Positions 34,742-45,331 are shown, numbered from the stretch's first letter. The stretch is DNA of 64,000 nucleotides from Fistulifera solaris (GCA_030295235.1 AP026136.1:1054001-1118000), one strand, 5' to 3'. Numbers and translations are program-made. The notes: generated from the letters alone by a model not told the origin.

Positions 34742-35289
34742 GGCAATGAAGCAATCAAAGTAACAGAGATCACAGCATAAACAGTTGCTTGATAAGAGAA
34801 AGTGAGAGCTGAAAAGATGTCTTCTGTCGTCTTTTCACTGGTTCAATGAGCTGAATCTACTCGTATTTCTTTATTTTAGGAGTGAATAGCCGGGGTAATT
34901 ATTTTGTCGTAGACATGTTCTTTCGAATTATTTTGTCGCGTCATACGCCGAGCCCTCAACGAGAGACTATATGCTAATGTGTAGTATTCTACGGATAGCG
35001 GAGTATCTTTCATCTTTTACTATTGACCATTGACTAAGTAACGGTTTTATACCTTATGTTGTTCGAAAGAGTCTTTGTGTCTTTGTCCAAAAGCCAAAAG
35101 CGCCTTAAACCTTAAACCATAAACGTCCGGATGATGTTCTGTGTTCTCCAGTTCTCCACTTCAATGTGATGTGTATTGCTGTATTGCTCATTGCTCGGTT
35201 GTCGGTTGTGTCTTCTTCGCATCAAATAGGGTACCTGGTAGGGTAGGGGTAGGGGGTAGGCATACTTCACGCTTCTGCTCTTTACTCTT

Positions 35290-35429
35290 TACTTCTCTTC
35301 CAAGAACGAAGAATATAAAATACGTACACCTTACACAGTGCTGAAGTTCCCGTGACTATACTTCTCTTCCAAGAACGAAGAATATAAAATACGTACACCT
35401 TACACAGTGCTGAAGTTCCCGTGACTATA
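35290..35429. repeat. Perfect 69-bp tandem duplication
   Basis: TACTTCTCTTCCAAGAACG...CCCGTGACTA repeated at period 69. Confidence 0.95.
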
Positions 35430-35702
35430 ACGTGAGCAAAGATGACTAACCTGTAACCTTGATTAGAGTTGACGATGATTAGTTTGGCGATTGGCGATTG
35501 GTGACTGACTGTAAGGCGCACGTTATACCTGGGAGCTTGGCGGAAACTGCTCACTCCGAGCGGTTTCAGAATTTCGACCTTGTATGTCGTACCGTTATAC
35601 ACCCAATTAAAAAGGAACTTCTTTTCGGCGATAATTGTTTACTCTCAGCGCGCGGAACGGTTATATTACTTAGCAGTTGAAACGTGTTAAAAGTTTATTA
35701 GC

Positions 35703-35822
35703 TAGAGAGAGAAATCTCTCTATAGAGAGAGAAATCTCGCTTTAGAGAGATTTTTCTCACTATAGCGAGAGAAATCTCTCTATAGAGAGATTTTTCTCTC
35801 TATAGCGAGAAAAAATCTCTCT
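35703..35822. repeat. Left subterminal array: six 20-bp palindromic units TAG(A/C)GAGA-(GAAA/TTTT)-TCTC(T/G/A)CTA
   Basis: Exact 20-bp period from 35703; each unit is an 8-bp stem with a 4-nt loop. Confidence 0.93.
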
Positions 35823-35998
35823 TCTCGAAATGCACGTGTGTCCAAATAAATATTTCAATTAAGGTTAAACTTGATCCGTCAATTCATTTTTCTCCAATCA
35901 AGAATCATCCAATGAACAAACACAAAAACAAAAAGACTTCGGAGTTGTACACACTCTTCTATTTAATGAACTACAATTCGTCCTCGAATATCTACTCA

Positions 35999-37164
35999 TC
36001 AATCAACCTCTTCAACAGGCTCATCGGGGCTGAGCTTTGGAAAGACGAATAGCACGTTTGCAGGCCGAGTGCCATTCTTGGCTCTGTGTGCTGGTTTACG
36101 ACGATCCAATTTCAACTTCACTTTTGTTTTTACTGTTACAGGCCCGCTTTTGATCCGTGGCTCATCTTGGACAAAGTTTGTCGTCTCCATGCTGACTGAA
36201 GAGTCTGGCGAGTTTCCGCGGTCTGGGGCTGCTTCGTTTTCCATCAGCAATAATGTGCCGCTATTCTCAACAAGCCCGTCATCGTCTACTGGGGCCATTT
36301 CAAGCTGAAGCATCCGATTGCTTGCCCGTTCAAACTGTTGCATGTCATGATCCACTGCGCTCTCGAGCCGCAAGATGGCCTGTTGTTCGTCAGCGAGCTG
36401 TGACTGCAGAAGCCGTAATCGTTCACTAATCCAGCCTTGTTTAATCTCCAGTGCATCTCGGTTGCATCTCAGTTCATTGAAAGCGTGCTAGAAACATTCC
36501 ACTCATACTCGTCCAACATGGCTTTCTCTTCAAGCTTCAGGACCGCATGCTGTTGTCCAGCCGCATGTGCATGAAGCTGCTGCAGTTTTTCCCGGCCTTG
36601 TTTCAGCTGCATCTCTAATCCTTTCAGTCGCTCATTCTGCTCAAGAACTCGATTCTTTTGATTGTGAAGCTCGCGTTCATTGTAGTTGACGCTGTCTTGA
36701 GGGAGCAACACTGCACCTTGCTTGTCAGTCAGCTGTGCATTGAGAAGCTGCAATTCGCCTTGTTTGTTTGCTTTCTTGATTTCAAGAGCATTGACATCTT
36801 CAGTCAACACACGAAGGTGCTCGGCTTTTTCTCGCTTCTTCTGGTTGCTGAGAGTAACAAGTCGCTCGAGCAACATTTTCTCTTGCTCTTTCACTCGAAT
36901 CTGTTCTTCGACGGCTTGAAGATGCGCTTGATCTAGACGGAGGCTTTCCGTGGATTCAACGGAATATTGCTCGAGCTTGATACGGTCGTGCTCAACCTGC
37001 TGAAGGCTTTTCAGAATCTGATCGCGTTTGAGATGGACATCTTTGTCTTGGCACTGAACTTCTTCCAGTTTTGTGAACAAGCCCGACTTTGCCTGCTCCT
37101 GTTGTTTGAGGAGATGCCGTGGGTGGTCATCTTCTTCCTTAAGGTCCTGTGTGTTGCTTGCCAT
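35999..37164 (-). CDS. Transposon ORF-A: long coiled-coil protein of about 390 aa with basic tail (frameshift about 36480)
   Basis: Q/E/K/L heptads from MASNTQDLKEEDD. A single-base change joins ...NVSST to FNELRCNRDALEIKQGWISERLRLLQSQL and ORF 35999-36373. Confidence 0.7.
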
Positions 37165-37283
37165 GCTTGCCGCGAACGTCAAGAGTAGAAGGCGGATCAA
37201 TTCGCTTGTATGATCGAATTGATGCTCGATGATAGTATGATAAATCTGTAGTAACATAGACAAGTCAAAATTGAAGAATTAGC

Positions 37284-38678
37284 TTAGTTGGTAGACATAG
37301 TATCATCGCTGCTGTCGTCGTCTGAGTTACCTTCTTCGTCACTCAATTCCAAGTCTAATTCTTGCTCACGTTCCGCGTTCGACTTCAAAGTTTCTTCCGG
37401 CAAAGAGCTTCTTGTTCACCCAACAACTGGCCAGTAGTTTCTTCTCCGCCCGACTTGCGTGGCCGAGCGCTTCTTTTGCTTCGGGTCTTTGCTAGTGTTA
37501 TGGATTTTCATCATACGCTTCATCCGCTCTGCCAATTCATCTAGCTTATCCTTTTTAGCAGGAGTTGAAGTTTTCTCAAAAGAGTCATCAATCTGCACTC
37601 GCCACATCACGTAGATAACGGTCCACTTCATCTTCTTGAACTTGGTAGGCAACACGTGCTGAATCGCCGTCAGCTCGCTTCCATGGATCTTACTCTGCCC
37701 ATCTGAGGAACCGGCGATCATCAAACACACAGCACTTGTGATTCAAATTGAGCTGGACGGTGCGAGTTTGAAGTACGGGGGTTTCACGGCTTTGTGGCAA
37801 AGGTCTGTGTCATCGCCATAGCCTCGCCGAAGTACATGTCGGTCGCTTGCCCATACTTGTCCTCGTCCCGTTCAACGTCGGCCATGATATCAGGATTCAT
37901 GTAGAAATATGCCGGTGCCGTCGGAATGGTAAGGCTAATGCTCATACCATCCGGTGCCAGCCGTGCAGAATACTTCCCAATGTCGTTTGGATCGAGAACA
38001 GGCAAGCGCCAAATCAAACGCTTTCGCAACCCCCTTCTTCCGAGTCATGTGCACAAACGGAGTAGCTATCCCGAGGATGCTTTCCGGATACAAGCGGTTT
38101 TGGAACACATCGACCTCAATCTCAACTACGTCGTCAAAAAGCAATGACGCCATGTTCTCAGTCGCCTTTGCAAATGATCGAGGCAACGAGCTTGTTTTTC
38201 TGCGCTGCAGGTGAAGACTCCAATGCAATCAAAGTGTCTTGATCACTGGAGGAGGATGAAGACTGGCTTGAGGGACTGTCTGGACTGGTGTCTGAATTGT
38301 CTCGATCTGTAGAAGGGCGGATACCAGCTTTCTCTAGCACTGACTGGTAATCTTCAATCGAAAGTAATCTCCACTTGGCTGTAATGTGTTAGAAGGAGCT
38401 TTGAAAACAAGAAGAATAGTAGGAAACCATACCTTTTGAATTTTGTTTTCCACTTGGCGTTTTCCTCTTTCGCCTCACGCCGTAAAGTCGACTCTTGGAC
38501 TTGATGAGATTTCCCAACTTGAAGCGGGGCTCTCGGCTCAAATCTTTCGTAAAGCCTCCGGCTTGTTCGATGTCGCGAAGAAGCTCGTTGAGTATTGGCT
38601 CTGGAAGTCCGAACGAAGAGAGAGAGCGCTGGCTTGTTTTGTTGATGCAGATCTAGTTGCAGAGGATGATTTCTTCAT
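37284..38678 (-). pseudogene. Transposon ORF-B: putative Myb/SANT-like partner protein, several frameshifts, intron 38379-38432
   Basis: Fragments GLPEPILNELLRDIEQAGG..FKLGNLIKSKSRLYG..(RQVENKIQK in an alternate frame)^KWRLLSIEDYQSVLEKAG, Ser-rich linker, beta-rich C-terminal part, acidic tail; divergent from the transposase. Myb assignment is inference. Confidence 0.65.
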
Positions 38679-39240
38679 CTCCGCAAAAATAATGCGTTCT
38701 GAGTTCTGAATCTGGTTGATCTGGGCCTCTTTTGGACAACGATGTACGATGTATCATGTATCCTTGATGTTCAGGGTTTTCTGTTCTCTCAAACTTCGCA
38801 AGTCGCAAGAATCCTAAAAACGTCCGCTTTATTTTAATTTTGTATTGCCCTAATGCCTAGTTGCGTAAGAACAGAAGCCGCTATCGTATGAAGTGTAGCA
38901 AATTCGTTTTCTAGATATGCCAGGTTCCTAATATATCGAGTTACTGTTTCATCCTAAATCACGAATTCCTAAATGAGTGTCTTGGGGCAATAATAATTGC
39001 TCGGTAAAAAGTGACAAACGACAACGACAAAACACAAAACACACGTTGATCAAAAACCAAAAACATTATCATTGTTTAAGTTTCCTTCAAGCAACTTTCA
39101 CTTTTCAGCTTTTGTTGCATTGATTCTGATGATTCTGATCGAAGAAACTTTGAAGGCTGACAATCTGTGTGACTAAATCAACAAAACCTACCCGGGGCCC
39201 GCTTTGCTTCTTGTTCTTTCAACGCTCTTTTCTGGCTACA

Positions 39241-40261
39241 ATGGCCTTTCTCTTTACACCCAAGGAGATGATGGTGAAAGGCCTTCTCTTGATACCCAGC
39301 TATGATGTCAGTCGCATTAAAAAGCTCTGTCAAAACACCAAGCTGAAAGACTTTAAGCATTGGTATGGAGCAACGCCGGAAGTTAGCAGCGCAATTTGGA
39401 AAGATCTCCAAACGTGTGACAATGTCTCGAATCGAATCAATCCACGAAAGGTAAGTTCCTTGCACTCGATCACAATAAAAACACCATACCTCTAAACCTT
39501 TACATGGATAGGCTCGTGTGGAATACTTTTTCATGTCTTTACATTTCTTGAGAAAGTATCCCACAGGTGAAGAACAAGCGAAGTTGTTCAACATCAATCG
39601 AGAGACGGTGTCGACTTGGACATGGTTCTTTCTCGAAAAGATCGCAGTCTTGGAGAGCCAGAAGATTGTTTGGCCGAAAGAGTGGGAAAAAGAGCGGTAC
39701 GCTGCTGCAAGGAAGAAAGGGAAAGACCAGCAAGATGTCTATGCTGTTAGCTTCGGATGTTCGGTCGATGGAACTCATGGTCGTATCCACGAACCGTCAG
39801 TGGGAGAGCCGCAGTCAAAGAACCCAATCTACTTCTCGCACAAATCTCATGGACCTGCCTTTGCTTACGAATTTGCAATAGATATTTTCCAAGATCGTCT
39901 TGTTTGGATGAATGGGCCTTTTCCTGCGTCTACCCCCGATAGAGAAATCTTCAAAAATGGTTTGATGAAAATGATACCCGATGGTATGCGTGTTGTGGCA
40001 GATAGCGGATACTCGGGAGAGAAATTGAAGCATATTATTAGTGGCCCAAATCCCCGTGACAGCAAAAAGTTGCGTAAATTCAAGTCGCGAGCAAGGTCGC
40101 GTCAGGAAGATTTCAATGCGCGTCTCAAGAACTACAAGATTTGTGCCGAAACGTTTCGCCATGATCGATACCGTAAAAAGAGACACAAGGCATCGTGGAC
40201 AGCTGTAGCTATTATATGCCAGTATCGAATTGAGCATGAAAAAACGTTTTGGAGTGTTTAA
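39241..40261 (+). CDS. PIF/Harbinger-like DDE transposase (DDE_Tnp_4-type); intron 39451-39511
   Basis: Spliced 319-aa ORF with HTH (FLRKYPTGEEQAKLFNINRETVSTW) and catalytic SVDGTH, YFSHK, GPFPAS, VADSGY, RSRQEDFNARLKNY. Confidence 0.92.
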
Positions 40262-40327
40262 AGAAAGATAGAAGAACTAAAGTTTTCAATGCTGAACATT
40301 GAGCAAACCACTATTTATACATTGTAT

Positions 40328-40867
40328 CTACTTCTTAGATTTCTTACTCTTCTTCAACTTCTTTGATTTAAGATAAGCTATGAAGAGCTCGCGACGTTTC
40401 TCTTGCCCGATATGCTGGCGAAACGTACTGCGATCGAAAACTTGGTACGCCAAATTGCTCAGGTAAAGCTTCTTAAAACCCAACGATTCGTCAAGCTTGG
40501 CTCTCACATCACAACGAAGCAATCGTTGAGCTTCAGATCCATCCCAAACAGGCTTTCCACGCCTATCAATTACTTGCTTGGGGAACACGGTACGATCCCG
40601 ACGAAGAGCATCTTCGTCCGCGGCCGCAGAGGCATACAGTTCGAGATGCTCCTTCCGAAGTCTTTTGAGGTTGGGAGAGAAGTTCTTGAAAGCAAACTGC
40701 TGAAAAAGTTCCCGCCGATCAGAAAGATTGTAGACCTCTTCCGCTGACATTTTGGTTGAGTCAATAGGCACGTGGCCGCTCACAAGATCATTGACAAGCT
40801 GCTTCTTCGCTTTGGACTTTATCCAGAGGTTTCCTTCCTTATCCTTTGGTCCCTCCCTTTTGGCCAT
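40328..40867 (-). CDS. Transposon ORF-D: 179-aa basic protein with two homologous helical halves and an NLS-like tail
   Basis: Intact ORF convergent with the transposase; W..S.A...L..D repeated twice; tail KSKKLKKSKKSKK. Confidence 0.82.
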   Translation of the reverse strand: MAKREGPKDKEGNLWIKSKAKKQLVNDLVSGHVPIDSTKMSAEEVYNLSDRRELFQQFAFKNFSPNLKRLRKEHLELYASAAADEDALRRDRTVFPKQVIDRRGKPVWDGSEAQRLLRCDVRAKLDESLGFKKLYLSNLAYQVFDRSTFRQHIGQEKRRELFIAYLKSKKLKKSKKSKK

Positions 40868-41089
40868 TTTTCGATGCAGACCTTTTAAAAGAAATTCCGG
40901 CTGATATCAAATTACTCTTTGTTGAATGGAAACAATCTTCTTATTTCAATGGACTTGTCAAGAAGAACAAATACGGAGTATAATGTGTTTTGAGTGCGAC
41001 GAGTTTTCGTCGAGTTCGTTAAACATTGAAAAGCCTTAATTAAAAAGCGTCATATTTTCTGTTGAGGTTCGTGGCGTACTCATTTGCGC

Positions 41090-41147
41090 TAGAGAGAGAA
41101 ATCTCACTTTAGAGAGAGAAATCTCACTATAGAGAGAAATCTCTCTA
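41090..41147. repeat. Right subterminal array: three palindromic units of the same 20-bp motif
   Basis: TAGAGAGAGAAATCTCACTT, TAGAGAGAGAAATCTCACTA, TAGAGAGAAATCTCTCTA. Confidence 0.92.
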
Positions 41148-41417
41148 TGGCAACAAGCAAAATTACATAGGGAATAAGGTGATTTACTATTATTGTATAA
41201 AACGTGAACTAGAACCGGATGCTGGTTGATACAGTTGTGTACTAAATTGATTCTTTTGTGTGATGACATGTCATATAGACTAAAAGTGTAAAGATCTTGT
41301 CACGGAGAGACTTCCGACAAGCACCCTGGTACATTTTCATCATTCGATCTTGCTAAAAAACGCTTGTAATTACATTGTATGTTGGAAGGTAATAATTGTT
41401 GATTCATAAATAAAAAA

Positions 41418-43145
41418 ATGCAACAAGTTCGATCAAGGCACCGATTTCAATTTGAACAACTGCCTCAGACAGTGTCACCCGCGTCATCGAAACAGCCAAC
41501 CAGAAGGAGGAAACAGGCATTTTCGTACCAACCATGGCTTTTGGGTGCGACGCGACGGCACAGTGCCGTACTTGCAATGCTTGGGGCCTTCTTTTCCTGC
41601 TAGCTATGCTTTCGATGACCAGGGTATTATCAATAAGAAGACAATTGGGCGACGCTAACTACCAATCACGAACGACTATTGTGTTTCCTCTTCTGCAAAA
41701 TACAAGGGATTTTCACAAGCCCAGTTCAACCATGGATACCCATCGCTCGCCTAATTTCGGCGACGTGAAGGTTAATTTATATACAAGCGACGGTATGGAA
41801 AAGATTCGTCGAATTTACAGGGATATTAAAGCAGAAAGAGGAGAATCGCTCGACAGTAAGCACCCAGAAAGCGAGCGCTCGTTCTTTGATTATATTTACA
41901 ACTTCGATGACGACTATCTCCGAAATCCATTGTGGACATGGGAGGATGATAAGATTCAGGATGAAAAGACATGTCGTCGAAATGCTTGGCATCGAAAAAG
42001 TCCCATGGATTGCAACTCCATGCACGAGCTGGACTTGCAAGGTCTATTGACCGAAGGAAAAGTGAAGGCATTGGGGTAAGCAACTATTCTTCGACGTGTT
42101 CACAACGCTTTTCGATTTATCACTGATGCCTCGTACGTCCAGCAAAGGAGGTTTCCGGGACGTCTTCTTAGTTCGCCACGGTGATGGCAGAAAGTTCGAA
42201 GAAGTTGTTTTCAAACAATACCATTTTGACTCAAATTACGATCATGAAGACTTTGAATACATGCGAATCGACTCTCTAGTGACCGAACTCTTCACGAGCA
42301 GCTCCCTCTTTCTAAACATTTATAGGTACGTAATAAAGTTTGTCAGAAGGACTTCCTATCCCGACTTCGACTTACTTTTGTGCGCAGCAATTGCGGTTTA
42401 TCCACCATGGTAGAGGCTATGGGCGACGGTTGCGTCGAAGATTACGCAGTACCATTACAGAAAGAACGAGGCTATATTGAACTAGACGACAAAGATGATG
42501 TGGACCCGAAAAACAATCTGACCATCACGCAAAAGGTCAACTTTGCTCTGGACATGGCCGAGTCGCTCGCTATGATGCACAATTATCCGGGTGGGGTGAT
42601 CGTTCATGATGACGTGCATCTGGAACAGTTCCTCCTCACAAAAGATCATATGCATGTCAGAATTCAAGATTTTAATCGAGCCGAAATCATGTTGTGGAAC
42701 AGTGAAGATGAGGAATATTGTCGCTATCGAAATGGACCTGGACACGGCACCGTAAGTACAACAGACGAACCTCCTGACTTATTCATACTAAAGCGTTCTC
42801 ATACATTTCACAATTTAGTGGAGATCACCCGAGGAGTATAGAGACTTGCCATTGGACGAGAAAATTGACGTATGGAGTTTAGGATCCAATTTATATGCTA
42901 TGCTAACGGGTCTGAATCCATTTTACGAGATCGAGTCCGGAAAAGCCGTTAAGCAGAAAATAAAGGAAGGAAAGATACCTCCAATCGACCCCCGTTATCG
43001 CAAGCGAAGCTTTGGAGAACAAAAGTTGGTGGAAGCTATAGAACACTGCTGGGTAGCTGACCGCAATAAAAGGAGCAACATTTACGACGTGGTAAAAATT
43101 CTCCGCGAAGCCGCTACGAATCCAACTGGCAAAGCGACATTATAA
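41418..43145 (+). CDS. Type II membrane protein kinase (PKDCC/VLK-like secretory kinase); three introns (42076-42142, about 42327-42388, about 42752-42818); frameshift about 41592
   Basis: Spliced LG^KGGFRDV Gly loop, VVFK, VHDDVHLEQFLL, IQDFN, WRSPEEY, EKIDVWSLG; N-terminal TM. Confidence 0.85.
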
Positions 43146-43453
43146 CAGTTTTAGTAAATGGACATTCATTGAAATACCCGAACGAAGCAGTCGATGCACG
43201 CATTAGAATCCGTGAGGCACAACACGAAACACTTAAAAGTTAGAAAAGGCCTCTCCGACATCTTGCATGACATAACTGTAACCTTAATGCTAGAGCACCT
43301 CATCATTGCGCTTTCAAAAAGCGCATCATTTTTGCGCAGATTTTGCCTCTGGAGTTCCATGCATCATGTTTATATAGTAACTTTGAATCCGAAACTACAA
43401 AACAGGCAGATTGAATCATTTTGTATGCACTTCGTTACCGTACCTTGCAGAAA

Positions 43454-45331
43454 ATGAGTTCTGACGACGATAGCAGCGATGATCGACACCTCTGTTCCGG
43501 CGGACTGTCGAAGCTTTCGAGAGATAAGCAAAACGGAACAGTAATCCAACGACCACCTATACGAGCAAAATTAGCGTATGATTCCAGTGACAGCAATAAT
43601 GAAATTGTGGTGATGCCACCGATGAAGAGTGCGATATCATCAGTTTTAACTTCGGGCCCCAGACTCACTGCTACCGGCTCTAATACCCGCGATCCTGTCA
43701 ACATGGCAGATGATGAATCGTCGTCATCGTCATCGTCATCGTCTGATGACAGCACTTCTCCGTTTAAATCCACTTTAGCTCAGCGTCTAGCCCGTCGCAA
43801 CGAGGCAGAAAAACTTACATCGAATGCTGCGCAAAGTAATGTGAAGCTCAAGGATTCGGAAAAGTCAAACCCATCAAACAGAAGCAGCAACCCAGTGCGA
43901 AAAGAAAACGCACATTCGTCGCAAGAAACCACCTACTCTATCGAAAACAAAGTAGGTCGCCTTAATATGGCTAACAGTCGACCCGAAAATTTGCCATCGC
44001 CCGCAAGTTCTAGCGATGAAAGCATTCGTTTGATGACGATAAGTAATGGTCAGCGAGCCATTGAAAACACTACAAAGTACACCTCACTCAATAGTGATAG
44101 TGACAGCGACGACTCATTGCTTGCGTCCTCGCAACTGAGGAATAACAAACCAGCTTCACGAACAGCACCAAGAAAAAATCCCATCCTTGCCAAGAAACCA
44201 TCTGTGAAAGCCCAACAAAAGGAGTTAGCGAAAGAGATGAGAGAACAAGTCCGTCGGGACAAACAGTTGGCGAAAGAAATGGAAAAAGATCTACGACATC
44301 AACAGCGAATAGCCAAACAAGCTGCGGCTCAGGCAGAGAAAGATGATCGGAAGCGTCGACGCATCGAATCGGAACAGACACGTGGAAAACGCGCGATTGA
44401 CGAACTGGCTATTCTAATGGAGCATTCGCTCTGTCATCACCAAGAGCTTACGCTTCGAAACGATCTGCAGGAAACAGGCTTTCTTGTTGATAGTTATCCC
44501 AGCGGCTTGGGGGGTGATGTAGTTCAATTCATTCGATGTGATTACGTCTTTGGTGGAGGAGCACGAGCGGTCGAAATGCTCAAGCAAAGCAAACGAGAAG
44601 AGTACCAGCATCTCCCTATTGTTGGCGTTGTATTTCACGATCCGATGAATTTCATTTCGAAGATAGAACGGGATGCACACGACGAAGACGATGATTATCC
44701 AAAGCTGGAATCATTTCTGAAAGGTCTTGAAGTCGGATGGCGAGCAGCATGGCGAGTTGGTGCAGAGCAACGTCCACGATTCATTTTCTACCTGAACAAC
44801 GTACATGCGACGCTGGATCAACTTTGGGTGAAATCTCGGAGAAAGGACCAGTCCATGAAAGCTCCTCCAACTGGCGAAGAGCTTCAAGATGCCTTGATCT
44901 GGCTGTCCATTCAGTTCTGTGTCGACTGTATTCACTATCTTTGCCCCGAAGATCTGTCGACACAAATCACCAAAATGGCTGTGTGGTTGGCACGTGAACC
45001 GTACCAACGACAAATGACGGACCTGGAATGCGCCAAGAAGACAAAAATGCTGTGTTCTGACATGGATCCGCCTCTGGTTCGGTCGCAAGACTGCTGGAGA
45101 CGCCAGCTTTGTCAAGTTCCTGGAATTAGCGAAACCATGGCATCATCAGTTGTTAGCTATTTCCCTACCATGCGTTCCTTATATCTCCGTTACCAAGACA
45201 CTAGTCTGACGGAAGATCAAAAGATTCTTCTTCTTGCCGACTGTTTTGGACGTGAAGGACGGCGAGATGTAAAATGTTCAGATGCTGTCTATCGAATACT
45301 GACGAGCAAGAACCCGAACGAGCTGATCTGA
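43454..45331 (+). CDS. EME1: Crossover junction endonuclease regulatory subunit EME1/Mms4-like
   Basis: Disordered N-terminus, charged helix, ERCC4-like domain, C-terminal HhH WRRQLCQVPGISETMASSVVSYFPTMRSLY..LLLADC. Confidence 0.82.
   Translation: MSSDDDSSDDRHLCSGGLSKLSRDKQNGTVIQRPPIRAKLAYDSSDSNNEIVVMPPMKSAISSVLTSGPRLTATGSNTRDPVNMADDESSSSSSSSSDDSTSPFKSTLAQRLARRNEAEKLTSNAAQSNVKLKDSEKSNPSNRSSNPVRKENAHSSQETTYSIENKVGRLNMANSRPENLPSPASSSDESIRLMTISNGQRAIENTTKYTSLNSDSDSDDSLLASSQLRNNKPASRTAPRKNPILAKKPSVKAQQKELAKEMREQVRRDKQLAKEMEKDLRHQQRIAKQAAAQAEKDDRKRRRIESEQTRGKRAIDELAILMEHSLCHHQELTLRNDLQETGFLVDSYPSGLGGDVVQFIRCDYVFGGGARAVEMLKQSKREEYQHLPIVGVVFHDPMNFISKIERDAHDEDDDYPKLESFLKGLEVGWRAAWRVGAEQRPRFIFYLNNVHATLDQLWVKSRRKDQSMKAPPTGEELQDALIWLSIQFCVDCIHYLCPEDLSTQITKMAVWLAREPYQRQMTDLECAKKTKMLCSDMDPPLVRSQDCWRRQLCQVPGISETMASSVVSYFPTMRSLYLRYQDTSLTEDQKILLLADCFGREGRRDVKCSDAVYRILTSKNPNELI

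Follow-up and report, generated by a model that had tools for sequence, protein, structure and literature searches.

What stands in for the DNA-binding partner of a Harbinger transposon when that partner has been replaced is an open question, and it is raised by a 5.8-kb element in the diatom Fistulifera solaris. The element occupies positions 35532-41325 of a stretch of 64,000 nucleotides (GCA_030295235.1 AP026136.1:1054001-1118000), which we refer to as the window. We consider it very likely that 35532-41325 represents a copy of a PIF/Harbinger superfamily (PHIS) transposon, which moves as DNA by cut and paste. To our knowledge, Harbinger-type transposons form the only large eukaryotic cut-and-paste group that requires a second, DNA-binding protein, and we know of no native transposon tool for the algal group of the host, which is transformable and industrially used. 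The parts of the element on which its assignment depends are as follows.

35529-35531, no strand: left copy of the target-site duplication, CTG (alternatively CCTGG at 35528-35532)
35532-35545, plus strand: left terminal inverted repeat, GGAGCTTGGCGGAA
35703-35822, no strand: left subterminal array, 5.9 copies of a 20-bp unit
39241-39450, plus strand: transposase exon 1, 70 codons
39451-39511, plus strand: transposase intron, 61 nt, GTAAGT..ATAG, phase 0
39512-40261, plus strand: transposase exon 2, 249 codons and stop, DDE_Tnp_4
41090-41148, no strand: right subterminal array, 3.0 copies of the 20-bp unit of the left array
41312-41325, minus strand: right terminal inverted repeat, reverse complement GGTGCTTGTCGGAA
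41326-41328, no strand: right copy of the target-site duplication, CTG (alternatively CCTGG at 41325-41329)

We identified a transposase gene that, once spliced, reads through 319 codons in an intact frame. Exon 2 matches DDE_Tnp_4 (Pfam accession PF13359, E-value 6.6e-10) over profile positions 1-157 of 158, with a score of 39.3 bits against a curated cut-off of 24.8 bits. A weak HTH_Tnp_4 match, under its cut-off, lies ahead of DDE_Tnp_4 in the same exon. Three acidic residues, D86, D164 and E199 when counted along exon 2, do not vary among the 24 aligned sequences (exon 2 and 23 relatives), and their place within the Pfam domain marks them as the predicted catalytic triad. Exon 1 aligns with the N-terminus (residues 31-92) of the relative P0156 at an E-value of 1e-10, and this alignment supports the splice. 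An exhaustive search returned 2041 transposase relatives at E ≤ 0.001 (78 at E ≤ 1e-30), mostly of about 300 amino acids. The nearest of them, P0006, is 63% identical, and the organism names found among 26 relatives looked up are those of two diatoms, a Bacillariaceae metagenome-assembled genome and Nitzschia inconspicua. Alignments of the transposase and of the element's ORF-D (ORF, open reading frame), and the 849-residue protein P0160, both described below, were also compared with viral contigs, where none of the three had any relatives.

The ends of the element carry short terminal inverted repeats, GGAGCTTGGCGGAA and GGTGCTTGTCGGAA, with 12 inverted matches in 14 positions. The left end (35526-35545) reads TAC CTG followed by GGAGCTTGGCGGAA, and the right end (41312-41331) reads TTCCGACAAGCACC followed by CTG GTA. 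CTG thus stands on both outer sides of the element, with TAC flanking it on the left and GTA on the right. Since the element begins with G and finishes with C, CCTGG (5 bp) is an equally possible reading of the direct repeat, and the predicted empty site, TACCTGGTA, is the same under the 3-bp and the 5-bp reading. The CTG duplication is of the CWG type, to which zebrafish Harbinger3_DR has been linked.

Inward of the inverted repeats, an end-to-end alignment of the two ends gave no further similarity before the subterminal arrays. The arrays begin about 170 bp (left) and about 175 bp (right) from the element ends, and each 20-bp unit contains an imperfect palindrome of 14-16 bp (GAGAGA-WWWW-TCTCTC). 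The core GAGAGAWWWWTCTC, with at most one mismatch, has 14 matches in the 64 kb, every one within the two arrays; 0.62 matches are expected by chance, and 14 were reached in none of 100 shuffles. The two 400-nt zones that border the arrays on their outer sides contain a single 12/14 pair of inverted repeats (plus one-base shifts of it) and a single one with matching flanks, and only 1 of 200 shuffles of these zones yielded such a pair. The significance of the pair therefore comes from its location just outside the arrays and not from its signature alone.

These results bear out most of the original prediction, which had been made from the same DNA and proposed a complete four-gene PIF/Harbinger-type transposon. 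Its 14-bp terminal inverted repeats and symmetric subterminal arrays are where it had placed them, its near-palindromic TAC-CTG-GTA target holds with the 5-bp reading equally possible, and the transposase is spliced and intact as it had described. The superfamily assignment is upheld by the transposase, the short inverted repeats and the CTG duplication.

Two short repeats lie immediately to the left of the element. One, at 35290-35429 and about 100 bp from the left end, consists of a 69-bp unit present twice in tandem (2.0 copies) with 100% matches. The other, TTGGCGA in 2.6 copies, is found at 35484-35501, just outside the left end, and is similar to TTGGCGG, the core of the left inverted repeat, maybe by coincidence.

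The interior of the element contains further genes, all on the strand opposite to the transposase.

36002-37164, minus strand: ORF-A, predicted helical rod of about 300 residues and basic tail, frameshifted near 36482
37246-37330, minus strand: intron joining ORF-B and ORF-A, 85 nt, GT..AG, from an NCBI gene model, with its splice sites present in the window
37286-38678, minus strand: ORF-B, about 440 amino acids, of no known family, with several frameshifts in the window and a modelled intron at about 38374-38432
38679-39240, no strand: divergent intergenic region between ORF-B and the transposase, 562 bp, from coordinates
40328-40867, minus strand: ORF-D, 179 amino acids, intact, convergent with the transposase

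The 562-bp interval between ORF-B and the transposase is presumed to be a shared promoter region.

That these genes are part of what moves is indicated by a shortened copy. We searched metagenomes with the small protein P0157 and identified one locus, L001, of 1015 nt. One block of this locus corresponds to 41148-40748 of the window (91.6%) and a second to 36190-35605 (81%); the two overlap by 3 nt at their junction (L001 418-420), and the locus holds both subterminal arrays. P0157 is one of the cluster mates (P0157-P0159) of P0005, itself among the relatives of ORF-D, and in these proteins the first ~40 residues of ORF-D are fused to the last ~60 of ORF-A. The fusion frame is open over 109-115 amino acids in four slightly different cluster members (from ENA and JGI). 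By its sequence, L001 has the classic shape of an internal-deletion derivative. Because it joins the start of ORF-D to the end of ORF-A between the same arrays, both lie inside one mobile unit in a further sample, and the claim of the original prediction that extra genes travel within the element is borne out by this sequence comparison for the parts that could be tested.

ORF-D is a small basic protein (isoelectric point 10.1) with a C-terminal tail rich in lysine. Among 5.8 billion protein clusters it has four relatives besides itself, three of them full-length and 63-72% identical (BLASTP). The alignment of ORF-D with these three contains 59 invariant columns, concentrated in residues 74-164. 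The ESM Atlas returned no usable feature match for ORF-D, and its structure rows all lay below a template modelling (TM) score of 0.4 by query. When the alignment was compared with metagenomes, 229 pattern matches included no relatives. A complex prediction of ORF-D with the two transposase exons returned no verdict (score 0.00), and BLASTP found no similarity between ORF-D and P0160 (best E-value 0.58).

ORF-B and ORF-A are probably parts of one protein. A 108-amino-acid piece of ORF-B, used as query, had a sole match among longer proteins, P0160, an 849-amino-acid NCBI entry ('hypothetical protein FisN_UnNu086 [Fistulifera solaris]') in which ORF-B and ORF-A are continuous. P0160 is open at the site of the 36482 frameshift, and ORF-B is intact in it. 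For both ORF-D and P0160 the recorded contig is 5612 nt long, and we infer that the two contigs are the same. Since the NCBI model splices ORF-B and ORF-A into one protein, the gene count of the element is three or four. The 'complete four-gene' description of the original prediction thus fails for the copy in the window: the transposase and ORF-D are intact, ORF-A and ORF-B are frameshifted, and the latter two are joined in P0160.

No Pfam family was matched by ORF-A, ORF-B or P0160, and against PDB sequences P0160 gave just two chance-level FOXP3 rows (E-values 0.58 and 0.74). For its residues 1-440 the ESM Atlas returned no usable feature match and structure rows below TM 0.4 by query. The AlphaFold model of P0160 alone has a predicted local distance difference test (pLDDT) value of 46, and no part of it exceeds 50 except four long helices in residues 455-751, at pLDDT 50-79. 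As this segment is almost without proline and rich in charged residues, a helical rod of about 300 residues is a fair reading of the model.

Public short-read data contain a version of the element in which these frames are open. We compared the window with contigs, rather than reads, of a public short-read run (X1), so the depths given here are rough. The X1 contig of the element interior carries an extra base at 36482 relative to the window. Eleven of 18 indel sites between this contig and the window were listed (36482, 37174, 37398, 37406, 37461, 37714, 38009, 38206, 38380, 38463 and 38476), seven more being unlisted. When a script applied the 11 listed indels to the window, ORF-A became open over 421 codons (37264 to 36001) and ORF-B was recovered in pieces of 287 and 176 codons. 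An open version of the element's ORF-A and ORF-B is thus present in public data.

The same contigs point to further copies. The element interior is represented by one contig of 4962 nt at depth 37.4, and the unique flank contigs have depths of 16.4 and 16.6. Because the depth of the element is about twice that of its flanks, there is at least one further copy. At the right end, one contig (219 nt, depth 40.8) extends no further than 41326, a single base beyond the inverted repeat, and the sequence of the 16.6-depth flank contig starts from 41299. At the left end, contigs agree with the terminus as far as 35565-35572 before they diverge into other sequence, which suggests further family members with this terminus. 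Together the graph pattern looks like that of a repeat with several members and different flanks, and the element family has probably been active recently. The interior contig continues unspliced through the transposase intron and so behaves as DNA.

Some features of the contigs concern the surroundings of the element. The right flank has a second version in X1 (41380-41541 and 41568-41917) at depth 21.1, compared with 16.6 for the first, with 10 differences in 41410-41541 and, in the other contig, 43 differences over 350 nt. This version fits a second haplotype or a homeologous chromosome, and it may be without the element, as one contig joins 34871 to 41380 with a side of 24 letters. When the element (36178-41125) is compared with its flanks (34800-35319 and 41299-41917), indels are concentrated inside the element; other repeats in the window may likewise hold indels that break frames.

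How might such an element move? The transposase would cut at the terminal inverted repeats and insert with a 3-bp stagger at CWG. By analogy with the DNA-binding second protein of Harbinger (PMC4482050), some protein encoded by the element would bind near the ends. ORF-D is the first candidate because it is basic, conserved and intact: it would replace the Myb/SANT helper, bind the subterminal palindromes and help to bring the transposase to the ends. We put forward this role of ORF-D as a tentative prediction, drawn from analogy, that falls somewhat short of probable. A second candidate would be the N-terminal helices of ORF-B carried on a dimerizing rod. ORF-B/A, which model and annotation suggest is probably one 849-amino-acid protein with a helical rod of about 300 residues, might be a dimerizing scaffold for the ends or a passenger, and the palindromic sites suit a dimer. 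A fuller scheme would have a diatom PHIS lineage in which the Myb/SANT helper was replaced by ORF-D together with a dimeric, coiled-coil-rod ORF-B/A, the rod dimer reading the palindromic 16-bp cores and holding the ends together in a three-protein transpososome new for Harbinger; we regard this scheme as distinctly improbable.

Several observations weigh against a discrete mobile unit whose helper has been replaced. The signature of inverted repeats and target-site duplication is by itself within chance: a script that scanned the 64-kb window for pairs that match in inverted orientation at 12 or more of 14 positions, have identical 3-bp flanks and are spaced 1-10 kb apart counted 59, all equally good, and the repeats of the element are just 14 bp long with two mismatches. 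Only one full copy has both ends readable, so a single insertion underlies both the duplication length, 3 or 5 bp, and the rule of a CWG target. L001 stops short of either inverted repeat, and the ends remain out of its reach. The empty allele that the original prediction proposed to look for did not appear, as no precise empty site was seen in the X1 contigs. One X1 joint (34871 to 41380) does span the element, skipping 6508 positions, with one side of only 24 letters; another (35813 to 41305) skips 5491 with a side of 22 letters. Both were rejected as a derivative or an empty site because their sides are too short. The first of these points, the frequency of the signature and the short, imperfect repeats, would fit coincidental termini, with a transposase gene and its neighbours lying in intergenic DNA and no discrete unit ending at 35532 and 41325. 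We judge this extremely improbable, given that the two repeats lie at symmetrical positions, 170 and 175 bp beyond arrays found nowhere else in the 64 kb, that at 41326 the depth changes abruptly and the assembly graph is broken, and that the L001 deletion copy retains both subterminal regions. The state of the window copy is less settled. Its ORF-A has one frameshift, near 36482, and its ORF-B consists of five stop-to-stop pieces of 76-108 amino acids plus a start and a tail, so that neither is open; the open version may have just one independent witness, as X1 and the NCBI contig may come from identical data. The frameshifts may have arisen as errors in the sequence, limited to the repeat, or by decay of the copy. 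If they are real, the window copy would be dead and non-autonomous, with only another genomic copy functional. Such a reading draws on the 8 substitutions and 28 gap letters that separate the window from the X1 interior contig over 4962 nt, when three X1 flank contigs show 0 other letters and gaps of 0 (two contigs) or 1 (the third), and on the doubled depth of the element. We consider it possible but doubtful: the indels are more numerous than the substitutions, and several of them lie in short runs (G5, C5), as in uncorrected long reads inside repeats; the transposase and ORF-D are unaffected; and the X1 contig has no break, keeps one depth and shows no branching that would represent another version.

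The part played by the extra genes is a separate matter, on which the negative searches already given for a known DNA-binding family bear directly. None of the four members of the ORF-D family (ORF-D and its three full-length relatives) matched Myb/SANT or any other Pfam entry, even at an E-value of 10, and the ORF-D profile matched no PDB sequence at the same threshold. The AlphaFold model of ORF-D, built on four sequences, is poor (pLDDT 48), with a helix run after W108, and because the pLDDT is too low no fold was called. Residues 1-440 of P0160 had themselves as the only hit among the matches listed, in a search of proteins of 466-1486 amino acids, shorter ones lying outside it. The extra genes (ORF-B/A, perhaps also ORF-D) could accordingly be passengers or cargo, for example an anti-silencing or host-interaction factor, with no part in the chemistry of transposition. 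Harbinger lineages that carry SET or TET/JBP genes, for which such a cargo role has been proposed, are published (PMC12730594), no DNA-binding family is detectable in ORF-D or ORF-B/A, and ORF-B/A has no detectable relatives next to other transposases, most of the transposase relatives looked up being proteins of about 300 amino acids on short contigs that offer no context. Against cargo stand the lack of any host homologue found as a source of capture and the fact that no further gene of the element is a candidate for the DNA-binding helper encoded by most PHIS groups other than Spy (PMC4482050). The divergence of the transposase relative P0006 (63%) is also similar to that of the ORF-D relatives (63-72%), which fits common descent and is no proof of it. 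On these grounds we hold cargo to be rather unlikely.

The element sits close to host genes. To its right is a host protein-kinase gene (41456-43145) in four frame pieces, the last of which matches Pkinase (6.8e-10); in the first piece, the earliest in-frame ATG is at about 41533, and the element lies upstream of it by about 200 bp. An EME1/MUS81-like host gene (Pfam accession PF21292, 4.6e-07) follows at 43415-45331.

With intact ends, a compact transposase of 319 codons and candidate helper genes without a detectable family, the element is a small natural system for tests of what is essential and what is accessory in transposition. Its place among known systems can be given from published descriptions. 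The DDE_Tnp_4 domain, the D-D-E triad, and the short inverted repeats with a 3-bp duplication (in one copy, with the 5-bp reading possible) are those of PHIS. The second PHIS reading frame, Myb/SANT, has no counterpart among Pfam matches in ORF-D, ORF-A, ORF-B or P0160. Two other assignments were rejected: ISL2EU, which has a 2-bp duplication and a YqaJ second protein, because the direct repeat here is of 3 or 5 bp and YqaJ was not matched, and PHISTA and HarbingerS, because the duplication is CTG rather than TA and neither TET/JBP nor SET was matched in Pfam.

Literature searches on Fistulifera with Harbinger or transposable elements contained no description of this element among the matches listed, and those on coiled-coil proteins from a third Harbinger reading frame contained nothing relevant among theirs. 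In the literature, exclusive of Repbase and of paper supplements, we did not find the gene set of ORF-D and an ORF-B/A rod protein without Myb/SANT. The original prediction had suggested a possibly undescribed system. As a kind, this was too strong, since both the CWG-type NuwaI (PMC4482050) and PHISTA, without Myb/SANT (PMC12730594), are published.

PHISTA elements, which duplicate TA, code for three proteins without Myb/SANT in any of them and have a TET/JBP dioxygenase; in HarbingerS there is a gene for a SET methyltransferase (PMC12730594, Kojima 2025). Both resemble the present element in encoding more than two proteins, and the third protein of PHISTA is likewise without Myb/SANT. They differ from it in the TA duplication of PHISTA and in their TET/JBP and SET domains, neither of which was found here.

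Diatoms are already known as hosts. Harbinger-like elements have been described in Thalassiosira pseudonana (PMC2806351, Maumus et al. 2009), and Thalassiosira Harbinger families are present in Repbase (PMC12730594). One of them, Harbinger4_TP of T. pseudonana, makes 3-bp duplications and is placed beside the Nuwa lineage (PMC12730594). Compared by description only, it shares with the present element a diatom host, a PHIS transposase and 3-bp duplications.

The closest description is that of NuwaI, which makes CWG duplications, has terminal inverted repeats of 12-61 bp that usually start with GGG, is about 4.5 kb long, encodes a transposase and a Myb/SANT protein, and was found in animals alone, in 16 genomes (PMC4482050, Han et al. 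2015). The present element resembles it in a DDE transposase without other domains, a 3-bp duplication of the CWG type (CTG at both ends of a single insertion), short inverted repeats that start with G, and a length, 5.8 kb, that we list as a likeness. It differs in its diatom host and in the absence of a detectable Myb/SANT second reading frame. Its ends begin with GGA and GGT, or read G|GGA and G|GGT when the G of the duplication is counted. Publications thus already cover the superfamily, CWG duplication as a target type, diatoms as hosts and the notion of additional genes, each taken singly, and the element adds to a known kind without a new principle. If its transposase does group with Nuwa, PHIS elements that duplicate CWG would occur in stramenopiles as well as in animals.

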